IMG/VR virus record: IMGVR_UViG_3300032268_000986
Span: 46,259 to 110,258 of that record
Source of the DNA: a virus
Length of the DNA stretch: 64,000 nucleotides
Strand: one strand, 5' to 3'
The position numbers and the translations under genes are program-made. Below the pieces are notes generated by a model, which was not told where the DNA came from, did not search any database, and saw nothing but the letters and a program-made list of their open reading frames with translations. Below, piece after piece: positions 27,447-47,768 of this stretch. The stretch's first letter is position 1. The number at the start of each line of letters is the position of its first letter.

Positions 27447-27775
27447 TTGAGCCTCCAGAATGTTTCGTGTTGTTCGCTGACACGAGCCATGATACGATAC
27501 ACATGTCCATAACTGTAAGGGTCAACTGCACGAATCCAATAAGGTTTTTCCACAGCATGTTCCATCACAAACTTACCAGCATCGGTTTGCTGCCAGTCCC
27601 AGATTGGACTGGCTATCATCAGATCAGGATCTTCAACATCGCCCATGCGGATTTCCAGCACACATACATCGCGAAAACACACTGGTCGATCATCGATGAG
27701 TTTTACTTCTTCGGCCTGCCAGTGCGTATATTCGGCTAGTTCGTTATGTGTCATTGCCATAACATATTTTAGCAA
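27425..27775 (-). CDS. hypothetical protein (116 aa)
   Basis: ORF. Confidence 0.45.
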   Translation of the reverse strand: MLKYVMAMTHNELAEYTHWQAEEVKLIDDRPVCFRDVCVLEIRMGDVEDPDLMIASPIWDWQQTDAGKFVMEHAVEKPYWIRAVDPYSYGHVYRIMARVSEQHETFWRLKWGGLNK

Positions 27776-27796
27776 ATTATTTTATCAAGGTCAAAT

Positions 27797-32316: not shown

Positions 32317-32493
32317 TTAAAATAAAACTACCACGGCTGTCATTGCCATCAACGCCAGCAGTGCAACAATTATACTGTACCCTATGCTTTTTGTCAAGGC
32401 TAGTTGTTCTTTTCCTTCCATCTTTCTCCAAGCAGTAATGCCAAAGTGAATCAACGCTGCCAGGACCGCAAATGCCAACCAAAGTCTAATCAT
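32317..32493 (-). CDS. small membrane protein (58 aa, two TM segments)
   Basis: not in ORF track (<60 aa); MIRLWLAFAVLAALIHFGITAWRKMEGK...; GGAG SD 9 nt upstream; ATGA overlap with upstream gene. Confidence 0.4.
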   Translation of the reverse strand: MIRLWLAFAVLAALIHFGITAWRKMEGKEQLALTKSIGYSIIVALLALMAMTAVVVLF

Positions 32494-32722: not shown

Positions 32723-34006
32723 TTAGTTTTTCTCTTCCTCATAGTAGGCGTATTGACCCCAGGGCGGAACAATGGTAGTGGTGCCATGCAAGATCCATAC
32801 AGTGTCTGCATAATTCTCATCGCCCCACGAACCAAACGGGTAACCATCTGTAAACACCACAAGACGCTTGGGCTCAATTTCTTCTGCCTTCAAGTAGTTG
32901 TAGATGGCATCAAAGTCTGTACCACCACCGCCCTTGACTTCGTAGTCGCAGATTGAATCCAAGTTGTCTGAATCATACTGAGCAGGATTGTATGCCTCAG
33001 TATCAAACGTGATCACATGAATTCGGTATGCCGGGAACGAGTCCATGATGCCTTGGATCTCACCCAAGAAGTCCTTGAGCATGGTCTCGCTGATCGAGCC
33101 CGAAGCGTCCAAGGCAACTGCAATGTCAATCATGGGATCCAGTTTCATGCCAGGCATGATGGCATCTTGGTGCCAGCCTTTGCGTCCGGCTCGCATCCAA
33201 GTGTAGTCGCTCTTGATGGTGCTCTCCAACTGCATGCGAAGCAGTTCGCGCCAGTTCATCTTGGGCTCAGTGAGCTCCTCGATCAGTCGCTTGACACCGG
33301 CTGGGATATTGCCGGCACCGTCCACTGTGGCCGCAGCCGCCAGCATGGCTTCTTTGATCTCGTCCTTGATGGCCTGGCGATCAGACTCGCTTAACCGGGG
33401 ACGGCCTTTGCCACTGCCGTCAACTTCTTCTCCATCTCCATCACCGTCGGGGTCACCATTGCCGTCCAGGTGCTCGTCAATCATTTGATCCAGCAATTTG
33501 CCAATGTCAATTTTTTCGGCTTTTTCGTACAAGATATCGTAGATCTCTTCCGAGCTCATGCCGTCATACTTGGGATCATGCAGGCAAGGCACTGTGGTGA
33601 TCTTTTCACCCACCTTGTGTTTGATCAAGTCTGCGTTCACAGCAAAGTCATTGGCAATGTTAAACAGCTGAGGATCACGCTCACCACGACGTCCAAAGTG
33701 ATCATAAACACAATGCAACACTTCGTGTCCAAACAAGAACTCAATCTCTTTGGGACGAAGCATCTGAATAAAGCGAGAATTGTAATAGAAATTTCTGCCA
33801 TCAGTTGCGGCTGTGCCACACCATTCATCGGCATTTATCAGTTTGAGTCGAGTTGCCAAATTACCAAAGAAGCTGGCACGGAGCAACAGGCCCACACGAG
33901 CAGTGATCAGTTTTTCACGTACCTCGCGATCTATCTTGGGATCAGTCTTGCCAATGAGATTTTTAAACTTGGCTTTGTCTTCTTTGTTAGCGGTGGTTGC
34001 AGTCAT
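32723..34006 (-). CDS. CobT-like protein with von Willebrand factor A domain
   Basis: MIDAS motif DASGSISE; partner of adjacent CobS-like ATPase. Confidence 0.7.
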   Translation of the reverse strand: MTATTANKEDKAKFKNLIGKTDPKIDREVREKLITARVGLLLRASFFGNLATRLKLINADEWCGTAATDGRNFYYNSRFIQMLRPKEIEFLFGHEVLHCVYDHFGRRGERDPQLFNIANDFAVNADLIKHKVGEKITTVPCLHDPKYDGMSSEEIYDILYEKAEKIDIGKLLDQMIDEHLDGNGDPDGDGDGEEVDGSGKGRPRLSESDRQAIKDEIKEAMLAAAATVDGAGNIPAGVKRLIEELTEPKMNWRELLRMQLESTIKSDYTWMRAGRKGWHQDAIMPGMKLDPMIDIAVALDASGSISETMLKDFLGEIQGIMDSFPAYRIHVITFDTEAYNPAQYDSDNLDSICDYEVKGGGGTDFDAIYNYLKAEEIEPKRLVVFTDGYPFGSWGDENYADTVWILHGTTTIVPPWGQYAYYEEEKN

Positions 34007-34032: not shown

Positions 34033-34061
34033 ATTATAGCAGATTGCAGTTTATCAGTCAA
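34033..34061 (-). promoter_or_regulatory. sigma70-type promoter TTGACT-N17-TATAAT (TGn extended -10), upstream of CobT-like gene
   Basis: rc reads TTGACTgataaactgcaatctgcTATAAT. Confidence 0.6.
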
Positions 34062-34356
34062 TGTCTGCAGAAACCCGGCCTTCCGCAGGGTCATATGTCA
34101 GGTAAACCTTGGTACTGTCACGGCCGCCTTGCTCATCGACCTTGTAGACCACAGTGTAGCAAAATTGTCCACCATTGGTGATGCCCAGGAACCGAGCACC
34201 TGTAAACTCCATGTCTTGAGCCTTTTTGTCCAGAGCCCGTTGCAGGGCCTGGTGTGTGAATGTTGTGAGTGTTTTGAGTTTCTCTGCTGTGATCATATCA
34301 CATGCTCCAGTAAGTTTCGCTAGCCGGGTTGCAACACCAAGGTGTGTCTGCGTCAA
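34054..34356 (-). CDS. hypothetical protein
   Basis: ORF (start uncertain). Confidence 0.4.
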   Translation of the reverse strand: MTQTHLGVATRLAKLTGACDMITAEKLKTLTTFTHQALQRALDKKAQDMEFTGARFLGITNGGQFCYTVVYKVDEQGGRDSTKVYLTYDPAEGRVSADID

Positions 34357-34576
34357 TCTCCACAGACTTGCCCGACATCAAATTCTTCACAGTGATCTTG
34401 GGAGCCTGGTAGGTGTCGCGAGCCACAATGTGCAATTGGCTTTCGTTCCAACCTGCTTTGCGGCAGAGTCGAGTGCGGGTGGCCTGTGCGGCACCCCAAG
34501 TTTTGTATGCACGGGTCTTGTTGGGACCGTCTGTAACAATTAAACCAGTACCTTTTGCAACAATCACATAACTCAT
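34298..34576 (-). CDS. hypothetical protein (92 aa, MSYVIVAKGTG...)
   Basis: ATG 34576 with AAAGGAG SD 8 nt upstream, directly downstream of promoter 34597-34625. Confidence 0.5.
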   Translation of the reverse strand: MSYVIVAKGTGLIVTDGPNKTRAYKTWGAAQATRTRLCRKAGWNESQLHIVARDTYQAPKITVKNLMSGKSVEIDADTPWCCNPASETYWSM

Positions 34577-34596
34577 TTGGGGCTCCTTTTTGCTGT

Positions 34597-34625
34597 CTAT
34601 GTGTATATTATAGCAAAATGGCGAA
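34597..34625 (-). promoter_or_regulatory. sigma70-type promoter TTGACC-N17-TATAAT + conserved AAAGGAG leader
   Basis: rc TTGACCgaaattcgccattttgcTATAAT; ~22-nt leader to ATG 34576. Confidence 0.65.
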
Positions 34626-34671
34626 TTTCGGTCAACCAAAAAAAGTGTTGTAAAAATGTAACACTTTAGTA

Positions 34672-34968
34672 CTACAAATTCAAGTACTTTAGCTGGAACC
34701 AAGACTGTGCTGGTTCACTGTAAAAATCCAGATGAACCTGCTCTTCGTAGTACATGCTGGGACCATTGGGAGTTGGGGGTTCCGCTGGCACTAGGCCTTT
34801 GTGATAGCGATACACAAACCCCAGCTCACGTCGCATGCGTGGGCGTATGGCCATGCCCATGCCGTAGTCTCGTAGAATCTGAGCATACACATCCGACCAC
34901 TCTCCAGGCCGGTGAAAAACAATCAAGTTCTTTTTTACGGTGATACGGGGTGGCATAGTACAAACCAA
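34672..34968 (-). CDS. hypothetical protein (98 aa)
   Basis: ORF. Confidence 0.4.
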   Translation of the reverse strand: MVCTMPPRITVKKNLIVFHRPGEWSDVYAQILRDYGMGMAIRPRMRRELGFVYRYHKGLVPAEPPTPNGPSMYYEEQVHLDFYSEPAQSWFQLKYLNL

Positions 34969-35264
34969 CTCAGTGTTTTGTCTTCGTCTATATAGATACG
35001 ATAGTCGCCGTACTTGACAGCATACGCCCAGGTGGAATTGATGTCGTCCTCTTGATAGTCCTCTTGATTGCGAATTTTGTTGCGCATCATTTGATAACGA
35101 GTCTCAACATCTTGGCTCCACCCAAATTGCTGGTTGAACCAACGCCGGCAACGATCAAAGTCCAACACGCCAGTGCCATGACCATGGTCTTTGTTGAACT
35201 CCACAAGGTACCGGTAACCATGCCGAGTGTACCGGTTGTCCATCTTGGTAATTTTATATTTCAT
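34935..35264 (-). CDS. hypothetical protein (109 aa)
   Basis: ORF. Confidence 0.45.
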   Translation of the reverse strand: MKYKITKMDNRYTRHGYRYLVEFNKDHGHGTGVLDFDRCRRWFNQQFGWSQDVETRYQMMRNKIRNQEDYQEDDINSTWAYAVKYGDYRIYIDEDKTLSWFVLCHPVSP

Positions 35265-35334
35265 ATGATGTCAAGTAGAAAAGGGCTGTGTAGCACACAG
35301 CCCGTGTATTTGATCTACACAGCCCTTCCCTGAC

Positions 35335-36417
35335 TTAGGCCGAAGCCTGCAAGATGTACTTGCCAAAGCGCGAGTGGAACTCGTCAAAGTTCTTGAGCTT
35401 GGTGGGCAGGAAGGGCAAGTCGTATGTGGTCAATGCAATACGAGCACCCATCACTGTCAACTCAGTCTCAAAGTTCTTCATCATGTAGCCCAGGAAGTTG
35501 TCGGCCATTTCATGGAACTTCTTGTCTTCCACTTTGTTTTCAACTGCACTCTTGAGCTCATAGCACATGGAGATCACCAGGCTGTACATGGCCGACACTT
35601 CTTTGACCTGCAAGTCCTTGACCTTGCCTGCCAAGATGTCTGCAGGATTGGGCATGCGGCTTGCAACCTTGCGGTGAGCCATGAACTTCACTGCCAAGCC
35701 TTCACCAATTGTGCCTGCAATCAAGTTGGTCAGGGTATCGTTGTCGCCGTCGTCATCCAACAGCTGGCTCACAAAGGTCCATGAGCGCGGTGTAGCAAAC
35801 GAACGCGAGCTAGACTTGGAATCAAAGTCATACAAGTCTTGCTTGGCAAAACTCAGGTAACCCACCACGTCTTTGTGGATGCGGTTTTGCACTGCCCACT
35901 CTTGCCAAGATGCAAAGTCCACCTTCATCTCTTGGTGGATAAAGCGGTTGGCCAACGGAGTCGGCATGCGATATGTAACACCTTTGTCGCTTTCACGGTT
36001 GCCTGCGGCAACCATCACAACATTGTCGGGCAAGAAATACTTGCCAATGCGTCGATTCAAAATCAACTGATAAGCCGCACTCTGCACACTCGGAGCAGCC
36101 GAGTTCATCTCGTCCAAGAACAGCACCACAATAGGATACTGGCTGGCAGTTTCTGCATCGGGCAAGTCCACTGGAGCCGCCCAGTCCATTTTACCCGAGT
36201 CTTTGTTGTAGAAAGGAATACCACGAATGTCTGTGGGCTCCATCTGACCCAGGCGCAGATCATACATGATGCCGCCAAGATCTCGAGTGATGCCTTCCAC
36301 CAGCTCACTCTTGCCAATTCCGGGAGGACCCCACAGGAACAAAGGACGCTTGACTTGGAATGCTTTGAGCAGGGATTTTTTTGCTTGAACAGCGGTAACG
36401 GTGCGTGTATCTGACAT
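35335..36417 (-). CDS. CobS-like / MoxR-type AAA+ ATPase
   Basis: Walker A LFLWGPPGIGKSEL; adjacent CobT-like VWA partner. Confidence 0.8.
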   Translation of the reverse strand: MSDTRTVTAVQAKKSLLKAFQVKRPLFLWGPPGIGKSELVEGITRDLGGIMYDLRLGQMEPTDIRGIPFYNKDSGKMDWAAPVDLPDAETASQYPIVVLFLDEMNSAAPSVQSAAYQLILNRRIGKYFLPDNVVMVAAGNRESDKGVTYRMPTPLANRFIHQEMKVDFASWQEWAVQNRIHKDVVGYLSFAKQDLYDFDSKSSSRSFATPRSWTFVSQLLDDDGDNDTLTNLIAGTIGEGLAVKFMAHRKVASRMPNPADILAGKVKDLQVKEVSAMYSLVISMCYELKSAVENKVEDKKFHEMADNFLGYMMKNFETELTVMGARIALTTYDLPFLPTKLKNFDEFHSRFGKYILQASA

Positions 36418-36452
36418 GGGCTGTGCCTTTAAAAGTTTGTTGCTAAGTGTTA

Positions 36453-36481
36453 ATTGTAGTTGAAACTGAAATATCTGTCAA
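36453..36481 (-). promoter_or_regulatory. sigma70-type promoter TTGACA-N17-TACAAT upstream of CobS-like gene
   Basis: rc TTGACAgatatttcagtttcaacTACAAT. Confidence 0.55.
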
Positions 36482-36648
36482 CTGTTGACAGTGTCAAAAG
36501 GACTAAACATTTCTTCGTTGGTTTCCTGCGACAGTTCTTCGTAGACCCACTCCACAGGGATCTCAAGATATCGTGCAATGGTACGGGGTTCGTATCCTTC
36601 TTCCAACATCCCTTGAATGTCCAGGCTAAGTTCGCTCATCTTGCTCAT
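36478..36648 (-). CDS. small protein (56 aa) with helix-turn-helix-like segment (PRTIARYLEIPVEWVYEEL)
   Basis: not in ORF track; GGAG SD 8 nt upstream; ATGA overlap with 36648-36926; stop overlaps -35 of CobS promoter. Confidence 0.45.
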   Translation of the reverse strand: MSKMSELSLDIQGMLEEGYEPRTIARYLEIPVEWVYEELSQETNEEMFSPFDTVNS

Positions 36649-36926
36649 TATGCAGTCTCCTTGTCCATGATGTAAGTGAATAAAACAAATTTGGCGCGGT
36701 TCAGTTGCTGACGAGCATCTTCGGCTCGCATGCTGTCAACTTCACCGTATTCGGTATTGACCATTTCTTGTGCATCACTCATCATTGATGCCACAACCAT
36801 TGCAGGTCCTGAAAAACGGAAACTAGGACTAGATTCCACTGCTTCACGCATCTGCGCTTCGGTGCAACCGTACATGCGGACCTCGTTGATTTCGCGAGTG
36901 GTAAGTCCTTGAAATGCTGTTCTCAT
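36648..36926 (-). CDS. hypothetical protein (92 aa)
   Basis: ORF downstream of promoter 36958-36986. Confidence 0.5.
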   Translation of the reverse strand: MRTAFQGLTTREINEVRMYGCTEAQMREAVESSPSFRFSGPAMVVASMMSDAQEMVNTEYGEVDSMRAEDARQQLNRAKFVLFTYIMDKETA

Positions 36927-36957
36927 TGCTGGCTCCTTTTTGTTACACTATGCCTAT

Positions 36958-36986
36958 ATTATAGCAAATTGTGAATAATTGGTCAA
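36958..36986 (-). promoter_or_regulatory. sigma70-type promoter TTGACC-N17-TATAAT
   Basis: rc TTGACCaattattcacaatttgcTATAAT. Confidence 0.65.
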
Positions 36987-37002
36987 CCGTTTTGTTCTGG
37001 CA

Positions 37003-37398
37003 TTAGTTATTAAATGTCTGTGTAAACACTCGCCCGCGATAGCTAAATGTGACTATTTCACCTTGCTGAATCTGTACAGGAATAAATCGGCACACTTGTC
37101 TTTGTTCTATTCTAGACGAATCACGACCAACCTCATTGCCAATGGCGCCACCTATCAATGCTCCAATCACAGTGCCAGCCAATTGGTCATTTCGATTGCT
37201 GCCTAGTGTACTTCCCAACAGGCCGCCGGCCACAGCACCGACGGTGCCTGGCCCAGAACTGCCCTCTCGTTGAAATTCCTGCATGTGGCATTGTTGTTGT
37301 TGCACAGTGACCAGTCTCGGCTGTACATTTACCACATAGACATCTTGTGCCGCTGCCGCCAATGGAAGGGTTAGTAATATTGTCAATAACTTTTTCAT
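37003..37398 (-). CDS. secreted/lipoprotein-like glycine-zipper protein (17-kDa-antigen-like)
   Basis: signal peptide MKKLLTILLTLPLAAAA; GGLLGSTLGS...GALIGGAIG glycine zipper. Confidence 0.6.
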   Translation of the reverse strand: MKKLLTILLTLPLAAAAQDVYVVNVQPRLVTVQQQQCHMQEFQREGSSGPGTVGAVAGGLLGSTLGSNRNDQLAGTVIGALIGGAIGNEVGRDSSRIEQRQVCRFIPVQIQQGEIVTFSYRGRVFTQTFNN

Positions 37399-37421
37399 TA
37401 AAATCTCCTTGTTGCTGTTTA

Positions 37422-37450
37422 ATTATAGCAAATTGGGAATTCCTGGTCAA
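37422..37450 (-). promoter_or_regulatory. sigma70-type promoter TTGACC-N17-TATAAT
   Basis: rc TTGACCaggaattcccaatttgcTATAAT. Confidence 0.65.
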
Positions 37451-37456
37451 CCAAAA

Positions 37457-37708
37457 TCAATTGGCCATCAAATCAATTTGAACTTGAATGCCTTCGTGCG
37501 TGATACCCACACCTACTGGACGAGCTTCGCCGCGATTGGGACTGACTCGGCGGATGTAAGCCAGGTGATTGATTGCCTTGCGCAGAGCATCACCATGCGA
37601 AACTGTGGCTGTTTTTGTAAACAGATCGTTTATAGTTCCGTACATGCCAAAACCGTTGACAATGTAGCGAATTCGGGTGCTGTTGCTAAAACCGGTAACG
37701 TGTCGCAT
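37457..37708 (-). CDS. hypothetical protein (83 aa)
   Basis: AAAGGAG SD; promoter 37740-37768 immediately upstream. Confidence 0.5.
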   Translation of the reverse strand: MRHVTGFSNSTRIRYIVNGFGMYGTINDLFTKTATVSHGDALRKAINHLAYIRRVSPNRGEARPVGVGITHEGIQVQIDLMAN

Positions 37709-37739
37709 CTGGGGCTCCTTTGTTGCTGTCTATGTGTAT

Positions 37740-37768
37740 ATTATAGCAAATTGGGCATTTCTGGTCAA
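37740..37768 (-). promoter_or_regulatory. sigma70-type promoter TTGACC-N17-TATAAT
   Basis: rc TTGACCagaaatgcccaatttgcTATAAT; leader nearly identical to 34561-34596. Confidence 0.65.
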
Positions 37769-37803
37769 CCAGTAAAAATGTTGTATTTTTACAACATTAA
37801 TAC

Positions 37804-38004
37804 TCAAGTAGTACGATAAAATTCTACTTTGTTGCGCAGGGATTCAATCTCGTCGGCGGCCTCTTCCAAAAGATCACTGATGCGATCTCGGGCGCCCTCT
37901 TGCACACTTTTTCTGTCTTGATTTTGCCTGCGTATTTCGGCACGTTTTCGTAGACGGAACACCAGACTTTGTTCGCTGACCGGCAGGTGTGATTCGTCGT
38001 TCAT
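37804..38004 (-). CDS. hypothetical protein (66 aa, basic/acidic)
   Basis: ORF. Confidence 0.4.
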   Translation of the reverse strand: MNDESHLPVSEQSLVFRLRKRAEIRRQNQDRKSVQEGARDRISDLLEEAADEIESLRNKVEFYRTT

Positions 38005-38125
38005 TGTTTTACCTTTTGCAGATCTACTAGGTGATATCTGCTGAAGGGATAATTTTCATTAAGCCACTCCAGCAGATCTGGTTCCCAAGGAAATTGTATG
38101 CTACCATCATGGTTGGTAATAATAA

Positions 38126-38635
38126 TCATGATTTCACACGAGTGATAACACTGGCATGCTGCCACAACACACGATCACCACGGGTCATTACTTCCAACAA
38201 CAATCTCTTTTCTTCCAAGTATGTGCGAGCAAACTTTGCGTCATGCTCAACAATGCTTCTAGTGTTAGAGATCAAATCAGCCAACTTGACGGTCTGAGCC
38301 TCAGCCGGTGCTGCCGCTGTATGAGCACGATCAATGGCCTTGCGTGTGGTACGATTGCCTTGTTCAGGCCTTGACACATCGGTCAACCATCCCACCAATT
38401 CAGCAACCTTGTCACCAAATTCAGCACGAATTACTTCGTTGGTGACACCAGTGTCTTCGACTACATCATGCAACCAGGCCGCTGCCAACATCTCGGGAGT
38501 GTGATCCACTGTTGCAACAATGCCAGCAACTTCACGAGGGTGAACGATGTAAGGCTCCATGGTGTACTTGCGCAATTGAGCCACGGCCGAATGAGCCGCA
38601 GTGGCAAATATTCTAGCACGTTCAACTATTTCCAT
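38126..38635 (-). CDS. HD-domain hydrolase, RelA/SpoT-type (p)ppGpp hydrolase-like (small alarmone hydrolase)
   Basis: WLHDVVEDT HD motif; 169 aa. Confidence 0.75.
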   Translation of the reverse strand: MEIVERARIFATAAHSAVAQLRKYTMEPYIVHPREVAGIVATVDHTPEMLAAAWLHDVVEDTGVTNEVIRAEFGDKVAELVGWLTDVSRPEQGNRTTRKAIDRAHTAAAPAEAQTVKLADLISNTRSIVEHDAKFARTYLEEKRLLLEVMTRGDRVLWQHASVITRVKS

Positions 38636-38657
38636 GATATCTCCTTAACAATGCTGT

Positions 38658-38686
38658 ATTATAGCACATGAGCGAATTTCGGTCAA
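38658..38686 (-). promoter_or_regulatory. sigma70-type promoter TTGACC-N17-TATAAT upstream of HD hydrolase gene
   Basis: rc TTGACCgaaattcgctcatgtgcTATAAT. Confidence 0.65.
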
Positions 38687-39144
38687 GCGTACCAGATTTC
38701 ACTAAACCCTTCCTCGTGTGTGGGCATTTCAAAGTTCCATACCATGTCCCACAGCACAGCTTCGGGGATGACTTTGCCCGGCCGAGTCTTTAGTCTACGC
38801 TGATGTTCCTCTTCGTCTGGAGTCTGAAACACCACAGCAATGTGCTCATAGTCCGGCAACATGCGGAATTTACGCCTGCGGCTAGCAAAACTAGTTGACG
38901 TTTGATCCCAGATAATATCATGCCCGTGATTGCGAGCATGTACAACAACCTTGGACATTAGGTCCACTGCTGTGGGCATGTATTCTTCAAACACTTCTGA
39001 ATAAGTTTTGCCTTGAGCTCTAGCATAGTCTTCCACAAATGAATCTGTGCTGACCACAGTCAGTCCCAGAGCCCAGATTTGATTCTGGACCCAGGTACTC
39101 TTGCCCGATGCCGGAACTCCAATCAGTTGATAACATCTAGGCAT
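38683..39144 (-). CDS. P-loop kinase (polynucleotide kinase / zeta-toxin-like AAA domain)
   Basis: Walker A GVPASGKST. Confidence 0.6.
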   Translation of the reverse strand: MPRCYQLIGVPASGKSTWVQNQIWALGLTVVSTDSFVEDYARAQGKTYSEVFEEYMPTAVDLMSKVVVHARNHGHDIIWDQTSTSFASRRRKFRMLPDYEHIAVVFQTPDEEEHQRRLKTRPGKVIPEAVLWDMVWNFEMPTHEEGFSEIWYA

Positions 39145-39153
39145 ACACTCTCC

Positions 39154-39702
39154 TCAATAGTGAGATCGAATCTCACCCTTTAATGCATCTGCAATCAATC
39201 GGTCCATGTCACTGGCCACACATCCTGTGGCATCAAATGCCACATCTCTAGCACGATATTTTTCCAGGCCAGTTTTGTTGCCATGCACATGACCATAGAA
39301 GTGTACTGATCCACGATGCATTTGGTCCCATTCCCAGATGGGATAGTGAAACATTATCACCAACTGACCATTGTGAACATAACGCAGATACTGATGTGTT
39401 TCACGAAAACATTCCCGGAATTTTTGATCCTTGATCAGCTTGGCATCATGATTACCTTCAATCAAAATCTTGTCACCATTGAGTCGTTGCAGTATTGACA
39501 CTGCTCGTTCCGCGTTACAAAATGCAACATCACCAAGAATAAACGTTTGATCACCAGGATGCACAATCTGATTCCATTCTTGAATCAAACATTCATTCAT
39601 GTGATCTACATCTCGAAACCCAGCACGAGTCACAGGACAAAACTTCATGATGTTGGTGTGTCCAAAATGTAGATCACTTGTGATATAGGTCTTCATCATT
39701 TC
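39154..39702 (-). CDS. calcineurin-like metallophosphoesterase
   Basis: DLHFGH, GDVAF, GNHD motifs; ORF open to 39741. Confidence 0.75.
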   Translation of the reverse strand, partial: EMMKTYITSDLHFGHTNIMKFCPVTRAGFRDVDHMNECLIQEWNQIVHPGDQTFILGDVAFCNAERAVSILQRLNGDKILIEGNHDAKLIKDQKFRECFRETHQYLRYVHNGQLVIMFHYPIWEWDQMHRGSVHFYGHVHGNKTGLEKYRARDVAFDATGCVASDMDRLIADALKGEIRSHY

Positions 39703-39706
39703 CTTT

Positions 39707-40174
39707 TTAATAATTGTTTTTAAATGTGCGCCAATCATCAATGTTGGGCTTTTCTTGTTCGTCGTATGTCCAACCCAGGGCCTTCATCATGCTATGCTTG
39801 ACCATCAAGTTTGGACTACGAAAACGCTTGGTATCATCAAAGCCCATCATGACACCAACCTCGGTCACTGCACCCGACCGGCAAATACCTGCCATGCAAT
39901 GCACGACCACGTTCATGCGATTGTCTAGCGCATGTTTTAACAAACTAACAATCTCCTGAGCCTGTGCATCACTGATCTTGGCATCGTCGGGAAAGATGTC
40001 AGACTTTTCGGCATCAAGAAATTCAAACCGATGTGTTTCTTTGAAGTCATGGGCTGGAGTGGGCCACCAACTGGGTGCAGGATCCATGATCTGAATCAGC
40101 ATGCTATTCGCACCAGCATCGTGATGGAACTTCATGGGCACATCAGCGGCGGCTACGTTTTCAATCCAGGGCAT
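39707..40174 (-). CDS. protein tyrosine / dual-specificity phosphatase
   Basis: CX5R active site HCMAGICRSGA. Confidence 0.7.
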   Translation of the reverse strand: MPWIENVAAADVPMKFHHDAGANSMLIQIMDPAPSWWPTPAHDFKETHRFEFLDAEKSDIFPDDAKISDAQAQEIVSLLKHALDNRMNVVVHCMAGICRSGAVTEVGVMMGFDDTKRFRSPNLMVKHSMMKALGWTYDEQEKPNIDDWRTFKNNY

Positions 40175-40194
40175 AAAATTCTCCTCAATGTTGT

Positions 40195-40223
40195 ATTATA
40201 ACACAAAGGAGATTTTTGGTCAA
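40195..40223 (-). promoter_or_regulatory. sigma70-type promoter TTGACC-N17-TATAAT upstream of phosphatase gene
   Basis: rc TTGACCaaaaatctcctttgtgtTATAAT. Confidence 0.65.
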
Positions 40224-41008
40224 GTGTCTTTGTGATGATTAGAGTGTGTGACCAGCCATGCTCGTAACCCGTCAACTGAGTTGAGTTCACGATTCATCTG
40301 GTGCCAGTTCTCTAGTACTTTTGTTTGGCCAGTGGTGGCCCACTCGGCTACTCCAGCAAGACCAGTTTCGTTGCCCCGACGAATGCCATAGTTGAAGTGC
40401 AAACTCTCGCGAGCAAATCCCGGCGGCACCATTCGAGTCTTGTGCAGTTTACGATAACGATTGTCGTTGATGTAACCCCAGTTTCTACGGAACGGCACAG
40501 TGTAGTATTCATTGTCGTCAACTGCCACTGGCAGCGAGTTACCCTGCTCGTCAAACCCTTCATTCACAGTGCTGTTGATCTCTTCTTCCAGCACAAACTG
40601 TGTGCCCAATTCTGGCATGTCAACATCTGACAGATAAACCTGAACATTCATGGCCCACTCGGCAGCGTCAAAGTGCGGGTAAAAGTTAGCCCCGCTGAGA
40701 TCAAGATAACCGCGGCATGTGGCCAAACTCAACCGCTCACCAGTGAGTTCTTCCAGATAAGGGATCAAGGCAGATCCAAACAGTATAGCATCCAGCCAGT
40801 GGTTGTTTTCCATCACAAGACGGTTTGGATACCGGCTGCTCCACAGGCTTTCAGTTCTACGAAAATTGTTCTTGATTCTGGTCAACCACTCGTCGTTTAG
40901 GAAGTTTTCCAACTGCCACAGGGTGGGGCAAACTGATCGCTTGTTGTCCCAGTTGAACATGGTGTTCTCTGGATAAGTTAAATTTGGGGGATAAATGGGT
41001 TCTGACAT
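40220..41008 (-). CDS. hypothetical protein (possible 2OG-Fe(II) oxygenase-like, YPHFD)
   Basis: 262-aa ORF; HxD-like YPHFDAAE. Confidence 0.4.
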   Translation of the reverse strand: MSEPIYPPNLTYPENTMFNWDNKRSVCPTLWQLENFLNDEWLTRIKNNFRRTESLWSSRYPNRLVMENNHWLDAILFGSALIPYLEELTGERLSLATCRGYLDLSGANFYPHFDAAEWAMNVQVYLSDVDMPELGTQFVLEEEINSTVNEGFDEQGNSLPVAVDDNEYYTVPFRRNWGYINDNRYRKLHKTRMVPPGFARESLHFNYGIRRGNETGLAGVAEWATTGQTKVLENWHQMNRELNSVDGLRAWLVTHSNHHKDT

Positions 41009-41012
41009 GTGC

Positions 41013-41264
41013 TTATTTACGATAGGTGCGACGACGTGGTGCCGGCTCTACCACTTTGGTAAGGTACTCGTTGCCAACTTTGCCTTGCTCAATTTCCAAC
41101 AATGCAGTGAGAATGGGACCATGCTTGGAAGTGACTCGGGGCATGTCTCCACGAGACAGTTCTCGAATTCGATTGCTGGCAATCAGCACCAGATTGTATC
41201 GATTGCCCACCATGGCCACTGCGTCTTCACTGGTGAGACCAAGAGTTTGAATGTTAGAGTTCAT
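41013..41264 (-). CDS. rpoZ: RNA polymerase omega subunit (RpoZ) homolog
   Basis: MVGNRYNLVLIASNRIRELSRG...ILTALLEIEQGKV aligns with bacterial RpoZ GNRFDLVLVAARRARQ...ALREIEEG. Confidence 0.6.
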   Translation of the reverse strand: MNSNIQTLGLTSEDAVAMVGNRYNLVLIASNRIRELSRGDMPRVTSKHGPILTALLEIEQGKVGNEYLTKVVEPAPRRRTYRK

Positions 41265-41292
41265 GTATGTCCTTGTGAGTTACAAAGTATTT

Positions 41293-41321
41293 ATTATACA
41301 CAACTTGTTGATTAAACACAA
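41293..41321 (-). promoter_or_regulatory. weaker sigma70-like promoter TTGTGT-N17-TATAAT upstream of rpoZ-like gene
   Basis: rc TTGTGTttaatcaacaagttgtgTATAAT. Confidence 0.35.
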
Positions 41322-41836: not shown

Positions 41837-42539
41837 TTTTTTTGCCGCCGAGTTTCCTAGATATCAAGTGCCGGGCACTTATGAAAATGCCGTTGCAACT
41901 TTTTGGCAAAACACCAAGATACCCTTTGTCGAACTTGACCTTGACCTGGACATGGACTCCACATACCAATGGTGTGTCAACAACTCAGATAATTTTGATC
42001 TAGCATGGAACCAAAGAAAATGGAATCAACACAATCAACACCAGGGTTCTACATGGTTCAAACGACCACACAGTGAACACCGGTATGATTTAGAAATTCA
42101 AGGAAAACGTTTTGCCAGTAAAGTTGACTCGGCTACCAATCTCACTAGAATTGCCAGGCCCGATGGCGCAACTGATTTGCAAATTCAATTGAAAAAATTA
42201 GGAATTGAATATTCTTCTCTCAAACTGGCTAGATTGGATCCAGGTGGGTACCTTGAACCCCACAAGGACGCATTTCAAGACCCTGACTGTTTGTCTCATG
42301 TATGGATTCCCATACACAGCTCTGAGGCCGAGTTAAAAATTTATCCCTGGGGCAAACTGCCACATCGCGTGGGATGTGTATATTTGCTGAACAATCAATC
42401 TTTTATTCACAGCATTGTCAACACATCTACTCAACCAAGATTTGTTGCCACCATGCGCTTGATTGTAGACACTGTGCCTGAAAGTATTTGGAACTTGATA
42501 AAGCATCAAGTTCAACATCAATGGTTTGACCATGGTTAA
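41805..42539 (+). CDS. 2OG-Fe(II) oxygenase-like (aspartyl/asparaginyl hydroxylase-type cupin)
   Basis: GGYLEPHKD HxD motif, second His in HVWIPIH. Confidence 0.55.
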   Translation: MLTTMNKLTADFFAAEFPRYQVPGTYENAVATFWQNTKIPFVELDLDLDMDSTYQWCVNNSDNFDLAWNQRKWNQHNQHQGSTWFKRPHSEHRYDLEIQGKRFASKVDSATNLTRIARPDGATDLQIQLKKLGIEYSSLKLARLDPGGYLEPHKDAFQDPDCLSHVWIPIHSSEAELKIYPWGKLPHRVGCVYLLNNQSFIHSIVNTSTQPRFVATMRLIVDTVPESIWNLIKHQVQHQWFDHG

Positions 42540-43045
42540 CTGTTGAGAACCTTGGCCACTGAATTCATAACACTGGCGATACGTCCAATGTCACGAAGTT
42601 GTTCCACTGTGTATCCTTCTGAGTTCTTTAGTGTGTCATAGTGTGCCTTCACACAGAAATGACATTTGCCAACAATACTTGCTGCCAAACTAAATGCTTC
42701 AAAGTTGGCCTTGGTAGTTCCGCCATGTGACGCAATAGCGTTCATGCGCAACTGTGCTGGCAATCCTTTCAATGCAGGATCTTCAGCCATCTCAACATAG
42801 GGATACCAAACATTGTTCTGTGCCATAATTGAAGCGGCTGTCATTGCAGATTCTGAATGCACTGGAGCATCTGCCAACAGCACTGCAAGTACCCGGCCGT
42901 TGCCGGTTGCAGCCAACGCGGCCACAGCACAGCCCATGGCCACATCTGCATCCAGTGTGCTACGTAATAACACAGCATCAAGATTTAACTTGGTGTCCTT
43001 GGCATAGTCAGGCAGTGCGCCCTTGATTGATTCAATAAAACTCAT
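42536..43045 (-). CDS. AhpD-like / carboxymuconolactone decarboxylase family protein
   Basis: GKCHFCVKAH matches CMD/AhpD CxxC..H motif. Confidence 0.65.
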   Translation of the reverse strand: MSFIESIKGALPDYAKDTKLNLDAVLLRSTLDADVAMGCAVAALAATGNGRVLAVLLADAPVHSESAMTAASIMAQNNVWYPYVEMAEDPALKGLPAQLRMNAIASHGGTTKANFEAFSLAASIVGKCHFCVKAHYDTLKNSEGYTVEQLRDIGRIASVMNSVAKVLNS

Positions 43046-43452
43046 CGGGTCTGTTCTCCTAAAATTTTATACCCGCGACCAGTGGGGTGAACACCGTCGG
43101 CACTCATATGATTCTTTGGACGTGGAAGAATGGTGTCTCCGTATTCTTTGGCAATCTGAACAATTGCCTCATGTGGAATAGGTTTACGATCCTGCCCTGG
43201 ATCAATCCAAAAAACTCGAGCTGTGGTTCCGATCTTCTCACGAACACGTTGCAACTCTGCCTTTGTCCTAACGCCTTTGTGATCATTGGCACCTAGACTA
43301 ATGATGACCGTTTTTGCAGATAAATCATTTTTCAAATAGTCTTTATTCCATTGCCATGTGTTCCAGCCGCCTTTGGAATAACTTACACATTCTGGTCTAG
43401 CCTGATGTATGCCCACAGCAATGCTATCGCCTAGTATTAAACATTCTAACAT
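43042..43452 (-). CDS. SGNH/GDSL hydrolase
   Basis: MLECLILGDSIAVGI block I. Confidence 0.55.
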   Translation of the reverse strand: MLECLILGDSIAVGIHQARPECVSYSKGGWNTWQWNKDYLKNDLSAKTVIISLGANDHKGVRTKAELQRVREKIGTTARVFWIDPGQDRKPIPHEAIVQIAKEYGDTILPRPKNHMSADGVHPTGRGYKILGEQTR

Positions 43453-43453
43453 T

Positions 43454-43909
43454 TTATGCTACCTCATCTTTTTTATCACTGGGGAATTTTGCACTGGTGT
43501 ATCGGATAACCAGTACACTGATGGCAATAACAAATGTGGACCCGGACACCGCCAGCATTTCACTAATGTTAATAGGCTGATGACTCATGATGTCTACCAT
43601 GTGTCGGGTCAATGCCGTTATTGCTATGTAAAGTAGAAACCTAACAGGCATATGGTTGGTTTTAAAATAAATTCCAACCATGGCCCCTATTTCTAAATAG
43701 ATAAACATCAGCAATAGGTCGCCAACTGTGGCATGGTGTTTCTGGAACATTTCAAAAAATGTCCATCCTGCGGCCCATACTGTTGCGGCGCCTATGCCAA
43801 AAAGTGCCAATCGATGGAATATATCAACTAGTGTATTTCCAACTCGATCAACATTTTTTGTGTCTAACATTACAGTGTCTCGCCACCAACTGTGCGGTTG
43901 CATGCACAA
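43454..43909 (-). CDS. PsiE-like inner-membrane protein
   Basis: 151 aa, 4 predicted TM helices; size/topology like phosphate-starvation-inducible PsiE. Confidence 0.4.
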   Translation of the reverse strand: MCMQPHSWWRDTVMLDTKNVDRVGNTLVDIFHRLALFGIGAATVWAAGWTFFEMFQKHHATVGDLLLMFIYLEIGAMVGIYFKTNHMPVRFLLYIAITALTRHMVDIMSHQPINISEMLAVSGSTFVIAISVLVIRYTSAKFPSDKKDEVA

Positions 43910-44475
43910 AGTTCGCCAGTTTGCAATGCGTCAAGAACACGGAGTGTTTCTTCTGGGCTACGACCCACGTTCAAGTTGTTGACAGTGACGTGTTGGATAA
44001 CGTTGTCTGGGTCAACAATGAATGTGGCACGAAGTGCGGCACCTGCTGGAGCATAGAACACGCCCAGTTGTTCGATCAAACTTACGCCACCGCGCTCTTC
44101 ACCGGGTTGGTGACGAGCAGTGTCAGCAAACTGGTGATGTGTGATCTTACGCAAGTCATCGTGGCTCTTTTGCCATGCTACCTTGCAGAACTCGTTGTCT
44201 GTTGATCCTGTGAGCAACACTGCATCACGATCCGCAAAGTCCTGTGCCAGTTTGTCATAGGCCACAATTTCTGTGGGGCAAACAAATGTGAAGTCTTTGG
44301 GGTAGTATACAATTACTTTCCACTTGCCAGGGAAGCTGGTTGCAGTGATGTCATAAAATGCATCATCAGGTTGTCCAGGCTTGACGCCTGTGATTGTGAA
44401 CGGGGTCAATTTATCGCCAACTGTTTTCATAATTTCTCCTTGTGCTTGAAAACCAATAACTCTCAGTATAAACAC
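43870..44475 (-). CDS. peroxiredoxin (AhpC/TSA, 2-Cys type)
   Basis: FTFVCPTEI peroxidatic Cys motif. Confidence 0.85.
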   Translation of the reverse strand: MFILRVIGFQAQGEIMKTVGDKLTPFTITGVKPGQPDDAFYDITATSFPGKWKVIVYYPKDFTFVCPTEIVAYDKLAQDFADRDAVLLTGSTDNEFCKVAWQKSHDDLRKITHHQFADTARHQPGEERGGVSLIEQLGVFYAPAGAALRATFIVDPDNVIQHVTVNNLNVGRSPEETLRVLDALQTGELCACNRTVGGETL

Positions 44476-44557
44476 TGATACGCTATTATAATAGTATGTA
44501 TCAATGAAGTCAAGTGAAAAATAGAATTTTTGCTATTGTATTTTTCAATAGCAACCA

Positions 44558-44770
44558 TTAAACTTTTTTATAGGGAGGATCAGCAGTCCACACAGCAGGC
44601 GGTGTATTTAAAATTGGGTCAGGCACAAACGACGAGTGGGCGTTATCCAACAACGGATAACTGCCCACAAATTCTTTGACACAGGTATATGACAGCGGAT
44701 TTGATGCTGGGCGTGATCCAACCCGGCGCAACCGTGCCATCATTTCCTGATCACGTACTGAAAAGTCCAT
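44558..44770 (-). CDS. hypothetical protein (70 aa)
   Basis: ORF just downstream of tRNA-Arg. Confidence 0.3.
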   Translation of the reverse strand: MDFSVRDQEMMARLRRVGSRPASNPLSYTCVKEFVGSYPLLDNAHSSFVPDPILNTPPAVWTADPPYKKV

Positions 44771-44781
44771 GCTGTATTTAA

Positions 44782-44857
44782 TGGTCTCACTGCCAGGACT
44801 TGAACCTGGATCTACTGCTTAGGAGGCAGTGGTTCTATCCAGTTGAACTACAGCGAG
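44782..44857 (-). tRNA. tRNA-Arg(CCT)
   Basis: cloverleaf by hand; anticodon loop CTCCTAA; T-arm CCAGGTTCAAGTCCTGG; CCA encoded. Confidence 0.7.
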
Positions 44858-45484
44858 TCAGCGCCAAAACGTACACACTTGACCATTGTGCTCGGCACGG
44901 ATATTTGTGACATGGTCGTAGATCTTGTCAAAAATTGTAGAGTATGTTTTGGTTGTAAAATGTGGAGCCACTGATGTAAACACTATACCATGTGGGCTGT
45001 GTTGGGCAAGGGCCAACATGAGATGATTTTGCATGGCCTTGCCACCGGCATAGCCAGCTGCCCAGGTGCTGTAGTCTCTTTGGTGTTCCCATGACATACC
45101 CGAGGTCATGAATACAACACTGCTGCCTGGCTTCAAGTATTGCATTGCACACAGTGAGACGGCATGTGGTATTCCGGCATGTATTCTCACAGTGTCTTGC
45201 CAGGCATGTTCTTGATAATGCTGTGTGCCGTCAAAACATCCAGGTTGGTCAGGCCAGCTGGCGGCAGTGGTATTGTACAGCACCAGATCCAAGGGTATGG
45301 CAGCGGCCACGGACTGAAATTTATCAACCACATCTTGGGTATTGCCAAAATTGGCAGTTATGCTGTGGGGATGATCACAGTGTGATATAGTGTGAACTGT
45401 GTGCCCTTGATTTCTGGCACGGCTGCAAAAATCAGGACCAAATTTACCGGTTGGTCCACCTCCCCCAAAAACGCAAATGTTCAT
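44858..45484 (-). CDS. NAD(P)-binding Rossmann-fold protein (SDR/NmrA-like)
   Basis: MNICVFGGGGPTGKFG dinucleotide-binding motif. Confidence 0.55.
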   Translation of the reverse strand: MNICVFGGGGPTGKFGPDFCSRARNQGHTVHTISHCDHPHSITANFGNTQDVVDKFQSVAAAIPLDLVLYNTTAASWPDQPGCFDGTQHYQEHAWQDTVRIHAGIPHAVSLCAMQYLKPGSSVVFMTSGMSWEHQRDYSTWAAGYAGGKAMQNHLMLALAQHSPHGIVFTSVAPHFTTKTYSTIFDKIYDHVTNIRAEHNGQVCTFWR

Positions 45485-45655
45485 GACTGTTAGCTGGGAA
45501 TAAGTCTGGGAAGGTAAGGAACTGCACGTGGTCCGTAGCGGGATTGCAGTAAGAGACGAGCCTCTTGGGCTGTTTGAGCACCCACACGGTCTTTGAATTC
45601 TTTGCCATCGGGTGTGCGTATAGTGGCTTCAAAAAGTTTCATACCACTATTTATA

Positions 45656-45730
45656 TGGCCGGCCCTGCAGGAATCGAACCCACACCGCTTGGTTCGAAGC
45701 CAAGCATTCTATCCATTGAACTAAGGGCCG
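45656..45730 (-). tRNA. tRNA-Arg(TCG)
   Basis: anticodon loop CTTCGAA in CTTGG/CCAAG stem; CCA encoded. Confidence 0.6.
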
Positions 45731-45747
45731 TGTTTGATAAGTAATTT

Positions 45748-46449
45748 ATGCAAACAATTTTATATATTCTCATTGTAACACACATTACCATTGCATGTGT
45801 TACGCTATTTTTACATCGAAGTCAAGCACACCGAGGAGTTGAGTTTCATCCTGTGGTGAGTCATTTCATGCGATTCTGGCTATGGCTAACGACTGGCATG
45901 GTCACTCGCCAATGGGTTGCCGTACACCGCAAGCATCATAGATTTACCGAACAGGATGGTGATCCGCACAGTCCACATGTGCATGGTTTTTGGCGTGTGC
46001 TGTTCACAGGTGCAGGTCTGTACCACTTGGCCAGCAAGGACTCGGCCATGGTCACACAATACGGCGCAGGAACACCCGATGACTGGGTAGAGCGCAACAT
46101 ATACTCCAAACACAGCAAACTAGGTATCTTGCTCATGTTGCTGATAGACATGGTATTGTTTGGTTGGTGGGGGTTGGTGGTATGGGGCATACAAATGATA
46201 TGGATCCCATTCTGGGCAGCAGGAGTTATCAATGGAATTGGACACTGGACCGGATACCGTAATGGTATTACTAAAGATCATAGTCGTAATATTAGTCCAC
46301 TGGGCATTGTTATTGGTGGCGAAGAACTACACAACAATCACCACTTGGATCCAGCAAATCCTCGTCTCAGTCGTCGCTGGTTTGAATTTGATATAGGCTG
46401 GGCGTACATACGCCTGTTGAGTGTGCTGAGACTGGCACACACGAGATAA
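45748..46449 (+). CDS. membrane fatty-acid (Delta9-type acyl) desaturase
   Basis: His boxes HRKHHRFTEQDGDPHSP and HNNHHLDP matching stearoyl-CoA/DesC-type desaturase boxes. Confidence 0.75.
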   Translation: MQTILYILIVTHITIACVTLFLHRSQAHRGVEFHPVVSHFMRFWLWLTTGMVTRQWVAVHRKHHRFTEQDGDPHSPHVHGFWRVLFTGAGLYHLASKDSAMVTQYGAGTPDDWVERNIYSKHSKLGILLMLLIDMVLFGWWGLVVWGIQMIWIPFWAAGVINGIGHWTGYRNGITKDHSRNISPLGIVIGGEELHNNHHLDPANPRLSRRWFEFDIGWAYIRLLSVLRLAHTR

Positions 46450-46450
46450 C

Positions 46451-46526
<76 letters not shown>

Positions 46527-46570
46527 ATGAAAGAAAAACCCTTGCCATGACCTCATTGAGCATCACGCAA

Positions 46571-46644
46571 GGGCCATGTCTGGAGCGGGATAGGAGAATC
46601 GAACTCCTAACTAAACCTTGGCAAGGTTTCGTTTGACCATTAAA
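46571..46644 (-). tRNA. tRNA-Gly(GCC)
   Basis: loop TTGCCAA in AAACC/GGTTT stem; acceptor GCGGGAT. Confidence 0.7.
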
Positions 46645-46880
46645 CTAATCCCGCGATAACTTTATAATAAAAAGTGTCCGGCTACTCACACCACATGAGC
46701 CCCGGACTGAGCGGTTACTCTGTCCACTACATTTATTCTTTTGGAATGGCGTTAGTACCACACCCTAGGCAGTTTTCAGGATCTCCGAAAGGGAGACTGT
46801 AAGGTCAGGTCCTAGTGTACCCCCTGGTCTATCGTTACAGGGACGCTATTTCGTTAACGTAGAAATAGTAAGACGGGATA

Positions 46881-47447
46881 TTACACCAAGCCTTGACTGG
46901 TCAACACAGCCTGGGTACTGGCACTCACAGCAATCTCAGTGCGAACATTGAGCTCTAGGATTTCGTCCTGAGTTTTCTGTTTGGCTTTCTTGAGTTGGGC
47001 CACTTCCTTTCGAAAACCATCAAGGTCTTCTTGTGCAAACACCGAAGTGTCCACTGTGGATTCAAAGCCGTACACACGACTGGTTTCAGTGCGAGTACGC
47101 ATCTTTTCCAGCTTGCCAGCAACCACAGCCGCACTCTCACGAACCTTTTGACTCACAAGGTTGGTGTACAGCTGGATCAGTTTGTCCTGGTGCGCAACTT
47201 GCGCCAGCTTGGCGTCAATGCCGGCTGTGTGGTTGGCTGTGCTCACAGCCTGGCGAATTTCGTACAAGGCATTGTACAAGTACTTGCGAGTGTCCAGCTG
47301 ACTTAGAGTCTGCACACGAACACGAGCAATTTCTGCTTCGGCGTCCTGGAATTCATTCAGGCCAACCACTGGGTTAGACTCAAGACTCTTGATGGCATCA
47401 TTGATGGAGTTTTGCAAGGCATTGGCTTTACGCAGGGAAATATTCAT
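46881..47447 (-). CDS. hypothetical coiled-coil protein (188 aa)
   Basis: ORF. Confidence 0.45.
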   Translation of the reverse strand: MNISLRKANALQNSINDAIKSLESNPVVGLNEFQDAEAEIARVRVQTLSQLDTRKYLYNALYEIRQAVSTANHTAGIDAKLAQVAHQDKLIQLYTNLVSQKVRESAAVVAGKLEKMRTRTETSRVYGFESTVDTSVFAQEDLDGFRKEVAQLKKAKQKTQDEILELNVRTEIAVSASTQAVLTSQGLV

Positions 47448-47732
47448 GGTATTCTCTTTTCAAAGTAAAAATAACGATGTTGCAAAAGGTCAAGTAACAG
47501 ACTGGACAACATGCAAACATCAAGTCACAACATGCAAAGCACAGTGACCTGTATATGTCTGGCTAGCAAATCACAAATCCGATACAGTAATTCCAGAGCA
47601 CACAAGTACGATCCGGTTGTTACACCGGAGGCCATAATTGTTCATTTTAGCATGAAGCTAAAACGTTTTTGTCTGTCCTCATCTACCTTTTGCTTCACCG
47701 GTTGACACAGTGTGTCAACAAACACAATTATA

Positions 47733-47762
47733 GCAAAACACTAGAGGTTAGTCTAGTGTTTT
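47733..47762 (-). terminator. rho-independent terminator hairpin downstream of 47769-48239
   Basis: stem aacactaga/tctagtgtt, loop ggttag; T-run on minus strand (TTTTGCTATAA). Confidence 0.5.
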
Positions 47763-47768
47763 GGAGAT

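Follow-up and report, generated by a model that had tools for sequence, protein, structure and literature searches.

A 64,000-nucleotide (nt) stretch of viral DNA from the IMG/VR record IMGVR_UViG_3300032268_000986, referred to here as the window and amounting to about 20% of a roughly 300-kb genome, raises the question of whether a group of closely similar sigma70-type promoters on its minus strand forms a genuine family and, if so, which RNA polymerase reads it. The original prediction, made from the sequence alone, had placed seven such promoters upstream of short operons, each with both hexamers, an exact 17-nt spacer and an extended -10 TG. A search with the exact pattern TTGAC-N15-TGNTATAAT, which fixes the 17-nt spacer together with the TG, bears this out: seven sites were recovered in the window, every one of them on the minus strand and within 34033-40223, where dinucleotide-preserving shuffles give an expectation of 0.00. 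One correction concerns the second site, which starts at 34607 and not at 34597. Allowing at most two mismatches yields 20 sites against 1.8 expected, with 18 of the 20 on the minus strand. The -35 element reads TTGACC at six sites and TTGACT at one, matching TTGACA at five of six positions in every case, and all seven carry a perfect TATAAT (six of six positions), the 17-nt spacer and TG at -15/-14, with TGC or TGT preceding TATAAT. In a generic promoter scan, all seven score 11 of 12 hexamer positions with the 17-nt spacer and the TG, and an ATG with a preceding AGGAG-type Shine-Dalgarno sequence lies 20-35 nt downstream of each. A position-weight-matrix scan, which had been proposed as a check, was over-fitted when built from the seven sites and gained nothing over the consensus search.

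The comparison with 80 related IMG/VR loci (1.31 Mb in total, oriented with a MoxR-like ATPase gene on the plus strand) reveals how strictly the arrangement is kept. The loci hold 163 exact copies of the motif, against about 0.04 expected by chance on our estimate, with 163 on the gene strand and 0 on the opposite strand. Spacing was examined by anchoring on every TGNTATAAT, so that no selection was placed on the -35 element. Among the 241 gene-strand occurrences, TTGAC precedes at 17 nt in 163 cases and at 18 nt in 9, and never at 14-16 or 19-20 nt; none of the 26 opposite-strand occurrences has TTGAC at a 17-nt spacer. Position relative to genes was scored on 154 unique sites from these loci with open reading frames (ORFs) of at least 35 codons, and a Shine-Dalgarno sequence followed by an ORF start was found 18-32 nt past the -10 element at 135 of them, which agrees with the predicted placement at the heads of short operons. 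Moreover, the footprint upstream of the gene for a von Willebrand factor A (VWA) protein, taken from 62 distinct relatives, shows conservation near 0 before the -35 element and an abrupt beginning at the -35 element itself, with at least 90% conservation at TTGAC, TGCTATAAT, the +1 region, the Shine-Dalgarno sequence and the ATG.

The genes behind the motif fall into at least 55 distinct families. The larger set of all sites is pattern-biased; drawn from a single representative per downstream gene cluster (55 clusters), the consensus is tgGTTGACCaaaAAT.cCc.attTGCTATAATA.a.a.ATa, behind which come an A-rich leader and GGA. Because the consensus survives this reduction to 55 unrelated clusters, it is not merely a product of orthology. 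In its lineage-wide form it can be written GGTTGACC-aaaAATtcCCaaTT-TGC-TATAATA-N5-cATA. The conserved positions extend beyond the core elements and, across the 55 non-orthologous promoters, include GG at -37/-36, C-30, A-26/A-25/T-24, C-21/C-20, C-13, A-6 and ATA at +1 to +3; A-26 carries 1.5 bit of information. In the larger set, position -6, directly after TATAAT, is A in 84%. A motif-only scan of IMG/VR found 118 further loci with 228 sites, no locus having sites on both strands, and 51 of these loci share protein homologues with the window. Overall, the sequence comparison identifies the sites as a real, lineage-wide conserved family of predicted sigma70-type -35/TGn/-10 promoters heading small gene cassettes.

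The -35 element also has a relationship to the gene before it. At 34056-34061, 38681-38686 and 40218-40223 of the window, the stop codon of the upstream ORF is the TGA inside TTGAC, and in the related loci this TGA closes a preceding open frame of 60 codons or more at 41 of 153 unique sites. In such cases promoter and upstream gene overlap at the 3' end of the gene.

Since the -35, TG and -10 elements all conform to the sigma70 consensus and are canonically spaced, the host housekeeping holoenzyme is the expected reader, and we put the probability that host RNA polymerase reads the family as sigma70-type promoters at roughly 85%. Following the established assignment of sigma regions to promoter elements, region 4.2 would contact TTGACC, region 3.0 the TG and region 2.4 TATAAT. 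Initiation would then be expected at the conserved A about 7 nt past the -10 element; in the sites of the relatives a conserved C-A-T-A follows the -10, with A in 76% at 7 nt, preceded by C or T. The predicted mRNA would carry a short A-rich leader of about 20-25 nt and a strong ribosome-binding site with an AAGGAG Shine-Dalgarno sequence. Each promoter would drive a unit of one to three genes in a gene-shuffled accessory region in which a few units are separated by intrinsic terminators. Among the genes are those for phosphatases, a kinase, a SpoT-like HD hydrolase, the MoxR-like ATPase and the VWA protein that partners it, as well as small ORFans. Early expression of the set is somewhat favoured by analogy, given the promoter type, the accessory and host-takeover-like character of the genes, and the precedents of T4, T5 and the Pseudomonas jumbo phage PA5oct. 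The T4-type late promoter TATAAATA occurs at 3 sites in the window against 1 expected, an uninformative difference.

Several observations weigh against reading by the host holoenzyme and against early timing. The scans for sigma factor and RNA polymerase domains cover 64 kb of a genome of about 300 kb, and a phage sigma factor or RNA polymerase could lie elsewhere in it. The spacer and the +1 region are conserved beyond the known contact needs of sigma70. No UP element is seen, with at most 0.23 bit per position at -38 to -60, unlike in T4 early promoters. Contigs of one relative lie in a metagenome-assembled genome (MAG) of Haliscomenobacter (Bacteroidota), and if such a bacterium were the true host, TTGACC/TATAAT promoters and strong Shine-Dalgarno sequences would be unexpected. 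As these promoters and Shine-Dalgarno sequences are atypical of Bacteroidota, the assignment is probably a mis-binning. Finally, PA5oct lacks strictly contiguous temporal regions (PMC7318152), and early timing here rests on analogy.

The closest comparison by protein similarity is PA5oct, which is rifampicin-sensitive, encodes no RNA polymerase and depends on that of its host for transcription (Lood et al. 2020, PMC7318152). The same study reports 32 promoters associated with transcription start sites that contain TTGAC and TATAATA boxes (PMC7318152). The resemblance in the boxes includes the A after TATAAT that is conserved here too. The two differ in that PA5oct has no DNA similarity to the window, and a 13-kb stretch of PA5oct showed no enrichment of the motif.

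Early promoters of T4 offer a second parallel. Hinton (2010, PMC2988021) characterises them as 'uber' UP/-35/TGn/-10 promoters that have further consensus regions. Against that description, calling the present set unusually regular was an overstatement, as T4 early promoters likewise combine these consensus elements with extra conserved positions. The two systems share a near-consensus -35, TGn and -10 occurring together, extra conserved positions outside the core, many copies placed before short units of small, non-essential-looking genes, and the presumed purpose of out-competing host promoters for the sigma70 holoenzyme. They differ in that the promoters here have a TTGACC -35 element, lack an A/T-rich UP element and belong to a PA5oct-like lineage. 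The -35 variant of T4-type early promoters is GTTTAC. Host-read promoters at or near consensus that are used right after DNA entry are also known from T5 (PN25, P26), T7 (A1-A3) and lambda (PL); those promoters are few and clustered at the genome end, whereas here many copies are dispersed, each heading a small unit. The review on T4 counts T7 PA1 and lambda PL among comparable phage promoters of very high strength; T5 P207 appears there only as a further strong promoter, one that Alt does not affect (PMC2988021).

The transcription units, all on the minus strand, can be followed in the direction of reading. The promoter at 40195-40223 (TTGACC-N17-TGTTATAAT) heads a unit of a DSP-type phosphatase (39707-40174), a metallophosphoesterase (39154-39696) and an AAA_33 kinase (38683-39144). 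It is followed by the promoter at 38658-38686 (TTGACC-N17-TGCTATAAT), which heads a unit made up of a gene with an HD_4 (SpoT-like hydrolase) domain (38126-38635) and two small ORFs extending down to 37804. The promoter at 37740-37768, with the same TTGACC-N17-TGCTATAAT and the leader ATACACATAGACAGCAA..AGGAG, heads the single ORF 37457-37708 (83 amino acids), and that at 37422-37450 (again TTGACC-N17-TGCTATAAT) heads a glycine-zipper lipoprotein-like ORF (37003-37398, 131 amino acids); neither ORF has a homologue in the 80 related loci. A further TTGACC-N17-TGCTATAAT promoter at 36958-36986 heads the ORFs 36648-36926 (92 amino acids) and 36478-36648 (56 amino acids). Through read-through it may also serve the MoxR-like ATPase gene (35335-36417), directly upstream of which lies a weaker internal promoter at 36453-36481 (TTGACA-N17-TACAAT, no TG). 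The two remaining members are the promoter at 34607-34635 (TTGACC-N17-TGCTATAAT), heading the ORFs 34298-34576 and 34054-34302, and the promoter at 34033-34061 (TTGACT-N17-TGCTATAAT), heading the VWA gene, a DUF2201/VWA metallopeptidase-like gene at 32723-34006.

Clear intrinsic terminators are found only after the ATPase gene and before the 37740 promoter, which makes read-through between units likely. The terminator of the ATPase unit is a GC-rich hairpin followed by TTTTCT at 35283-35303 (-16.2 kcal/mol, z = -5.4). The second is a terminator-like AT-rich stem-loop followed by a T-run at 37771-37804 that abuts the 37740 promoter (minimum free energy -13 kcal/mol, z = -4.35, with 0 of 200 shuffles folding equally well). 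Folding against shuffles gave no significant hairpin at 34636-34682, 36987-37030 or 37451-37494, and among the seven promoters a stem-loop is clear at one and weak at a second. Across the relatives, the 55 nt upstream of the promoters fold at -9.2 kcal/mol against -7.7 kcal/mol for shuffles.

The predicted leader AAAGGAG is exact in three of the seven sites only, and the shorter AGGAG holds in six of seven. A duplicated promoter-leader cassette was also confirmed: the copies at the 34607 and 37740 sites (the latter at 37720-37785) measure 66 nt, are 85% identical with a small indel and precede two different genes, between which no similarity is evident to the eye in a comparison made without a tool. 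The 36-mer originally quoted as present at both 34571 and 37717 in fact lies at 34582-34617 and occurs once.

The association of promoter and gene is also kept across relatives, as judged by scoring orthologues in two ways, with a strict and a relaxed match. Orthologues of the DSP-type phosphatase carry the promoter in 13 of 21 cases under the strict match and 17 of 21 under the relaxed one; the corresponding values are 31/70 and 52/70 for the VWA protein, 6/11 and 10/11 for the 92-amino-acid ORF, and 11/79 and 56/79 for the MoxR-like ATPase at the position of its internal site. Genes that lack the promoter in the window likewise lack it in relatives (0/47, 0/43, 0/10 and 0/7, in addition to rpoZ below).

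The gene encoding the RpoZ/Rpb6-like protein (41013-41264, minus strand, 83 amino acids; Pfam PF01192, 3.5e-11) had been included in the family, an inclusion that does not hold. The sequence 28 nt upstream of it (41293-41321) is a weaker, plausible promoter, TTGTGT-N17-TATAAT, with no in-register TG, and it is kept in L001, the closest relative of the window, as TTGCGT-N17-TATAAT. In most relatives rpoZ is an internal operon gene, standing behind another coding sequence with no promoter, and a family promoter precedes it in 0 of the 26 orthologues with an aligned 5' end. The RpoZ unit should therefore not be counted within the strict promoter family. Omega-like homologues are present in 45 of the 80 related loci. 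In the cultured-phage collection, none of the omega-like matches, whose records were not looked into, fell on an evident phage genome: two are rpoZ annotations in Salmonella genome records, two lie on unannotated phage-named records of 1.5-1.7 kb, and two further matches, with the same 39.7% identity, lie on unannotated Campylobacter phage records. A phage-encoded omega would be unusual. The N-terminus of E. coli omega helps form ppGpp site 1, and that of the omega-like ORF is longer. Together with the HD_4 protein (38126-38635, minus strand, 169 amino acids), which has a RelA/SpoT-type hydrolase domain and is headed by a family promoter, the omega-like gene suggests manipulation of the host stringent response.

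The explanation that survives best beside reading by host RNA polymerase is an additional role and not an alternative to it, namely that the cassettes double as recombination linkers of about 60-90 nt resembling promoter-early stem-loops (PeSLs), with homologous exchange between them inserting, deleting and moving modules of promoter and gene. In T4-type phages, PeSL cassettes lie on either side of ORFans in hyperplastic regions, where they bring about modular shuffling (Arbiol et al. 2010, PMC2839356; Comeau et al. 2014, PMC4122927). The cassettes here are alike in layout, with a strong sigma70-like promoter occupying the space from an upstream stop codon to the next Shine-Dalgarno sequence and ATG, and in lying densely in a hyperplastic region with ORFans, with one cassette-bounded three-gene indel. 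Specifically, L001, at 86-90% nucleotide identity, lacks window positions 37739-36664, which correspond to three promoter-gene cassettes, and one of the indel junctions falls between the -10 element and the Shine-Dalgarno sequence. The two promoter-headed genes that have no homologue in the related loci point the same way, as do the 66-nt cassette standing before two genes dissimilar by eye and the 34298-34656 cassette, which lies upstream of the ATPase gene in the three relatives that have the gene and downstream of it in the window. Homology blocks, moreover, often start exactly at the -35 element, and non-orthologous promoters are slightly more similar within a locus than between loci (0.411 vs 0.380).

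This last excess is small, however, and the pairs are not independent. The indel evidence is also weaker than it first appears: among 22 indels that distinguish close relatives, 9 involve a cassette, far above the approximately 1 event expected for random positions, but 7-9 of 17 gene starts (about 40-50%) carry a promoter, so that 9 of 22 is roughly what intergenic boundaries alone would give. Gene order changes at promoter-less junctions too, such as the swap of kinase and metallophosphatase, the stem-loops are inconsistent, with one of seven promoters having a significant one, and the phage is not T4-like. We therefore consider a role as recombination linkers possible but doubtful. The cassettes work like the promoter part of PeSLs; membership of the PeSL family and a recombination role are not established. 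A broader version, in which the cassettes are linkers of integron-like PeSL-type shuffling in a widespread freshwater, non-T4-like jumbo lineage, with a lineage-specific spacer and +1 consensus that concerted evolution, a phage factor working on host RNA polymerase, or both would maintain, is somewhat less likely still. An omega-like subunit is in fact encoded in this lineage, beside a SpoT-like hydrolase.

The extended conservation leads to a further proposal, that a regulator of phage or host origin uses the spacer as an operator superimposed on the promoter, for instance to shut off the set later in infection. Positions -29 to -16 are indeed conserved position by position across the 55 non-orthologous promoters, and short palindromes occur in some copies, for example GGAATTCC at the 37422 site. 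The idea of a spacer dyad was rejected because no covariation or dyad symmetry was found between the spacer half-sites beyond what column composition gives. A preference for T-17/T-16, moreover, is typical of extended -10 promoters in general, which counts against a dedicated operator. T4 early promoters also have extra consensus positions with no known operator (Hinton 2010, PMC2988021). An operator is accordingly improbable.

Reading by a phage sigma factor or a phage RNA polymerase in place of the host housekeeping holoenzyme is less probable again. It would account for conservation in excess of generic sigma70 needs (GG -37/-36, C-30, A-26, A-25, T-24, C-13, A-6 and ATA at +1 to +3), it finds some support in the phage-encoded omega-like protein, and the inspection covered about 20% of the genome. 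The core elements, however, are the bacterial sigma70 consensus at its 17-nt spacing, and the cultured relative PA5oct depends on host RNA polymerase. No sigma or RNA polymerase domain, including that of the beta subunit, was found by the Pfam scan of 54 further window ORFs, and among ten interval genes scanned separately the only match of an RNA polymerase type was the RpoZ-like RNA_pol_Rpb6 (omega). That the matches are due to chance or to a non-functional dispersed repeat is effectively refuted by the seven sites observed against 0.00 expected, by the strict strand, spacing and position specificity of more than 160 copies in relatives, and by a footprint that starts at the -35 element.

The analysis provides a well-supported promoter consensus and a transcription-unit map for a large uncultured jumbo-phage lineage, and it would imply dependence on the host sigma70 holoenzyme at least for the accessory region. 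The pattern GGTTGACC-N12-TTTGCTATAATA can serve as a marker for finding and orienting contigs of the lineage, and the family may be a source of strong portable promoters. What is known of phage transcription is unchanged; the type is an ordinary strong promoter that would capture host RNA polymerase.

The window belongs to an uncultured jumbo phage whose lineage is large, as indicated by more than 575 related stretches in IMG/VR, many of them on contigs of 200-350 kb, and by the MoxR-like ATPase, whose closest cultured relative is that of PA5oct (49.9% amino acid identity); the ATPases of Sinorhizobium phage Phosso and Agrobacterium phage Atu_ph07 are less similar. Megablast of the region against cultured phages gave no match, and blastn of a 78-nt cassette against them returned only short, non-significant promoter-like matches (E of at least 0.01). 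A freshwater origin of the lineage is assumed, on the basis of freshwater-typical MAG names only. A scan of bacterial genomes with the promoter pattern, made to identify the host, was set aside, as it returned mostly mis-binned phage contigs and no host promoters. In the Haliscomenobacter sp. MAG EUL_031 (NZ_JBBAKG01), the motif occurs on five contigs (L201, L204, L205, L210 and L212), of which L204 encodes the ATPase (90.6% amino acid identity) and the VWA protein (83%), marking it as a phage relative binned in that MAG.

From about 24.5 kb to 64 kb the gene-bearing strand of the window is the minus strand. The promoter region is variable in the 80 relatives: the ATPase gene, the VWA gene and a thymidylate-synthase block are shared as anchors, and the content between them differs widely. 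In three relatives (L024, L015 and L020) the order of metallophosphoesterase and AAA_33 kinase (38683-39696, minus strand) is swapped, giving DSP phosphatase, kinase and metallophosphatase, and the swap falls at junctions that lack a family promoter in the window. Two ORFs not headed by a family promoter lie between the terminator at 35283-35303 and the 34607 promoter, and an ORF of 262 amino acids lies upstream of the 40195 promoter, all on the minus strand. A 2OG-Fe(II) oxygenase match from a pooled Pfam scan, in which the matching ORF is unspecified, may belong to this 262-amino-acid ORF.

Further promoter-like sites were found outside the reported interval. A probable additional family member with one mismatch, TTGACC-N17-TGCTAAAAT, lies at 27766-27794, similar one-mismatch sites were returned by the mismatch search at 44485-44513, 47727-47755 and 54368-54396, and the promoter scan gave TTGACA-N17-TATAAT with no TG at 32369-32397, all on the minus strand. 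On the plus strand, a one-mismatch family-like promoter, TTGAAG-N17-TGTTATAAT, lies at 4002-4030 and stops just 5 nt short of 4036, where the ATG of the first radical-SAM-like ORF stands, a placement that would imply a leaderless or nearly leaderless mRNA. In the region of 4036-16268 on the plus strand and 24547-25509 on the minus strand, radical-SAM PHROGs (phrog_14086/1802) were matched by five of the consecutive ORFs that were tested. After these come a Nol-like carbamoyltransferase (9e-91) and, at a greater distance, a nucleotide-sugar epimerase. Pfam domains of a DegT aminotransferase, a PIG-L deacetylase and a GDSL lipase were also found among the window ORFs. The radical-SAM/carbamoyltransferase region looks like a large biosynthetic cluster of the sugar or secondary-metabolite type in a phage.

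The window also carries 33 tRNA genes and a permuted transfer-messenger RNA (tmRNA). The tRNA genes and tmRNA span 44782-62980 on the minus strand, with the two-piece tmRNA at 58790-59280 encoding the tag ANDSQFALAA. An Rfam scan of the window found no RNA family in the promoter leaders, its matches being confined to the tRNAs, the tmRNA and a borderline tRNA-Sec at 49747-49831, which scores 48.0 bits against a gathering score of 47 and was not called by ARAGORN. Pooled Pfam matches for the ORFs in 42536-47447 and 54723-62818 include a TctA transporter subunit, PsiE, a fatty-acid desaturase, a CMD-family protein and an RNaseH-like protein, a set of unusual, host-like auxiliary genes for which the pooled search does not resolve which ORF has which domain.

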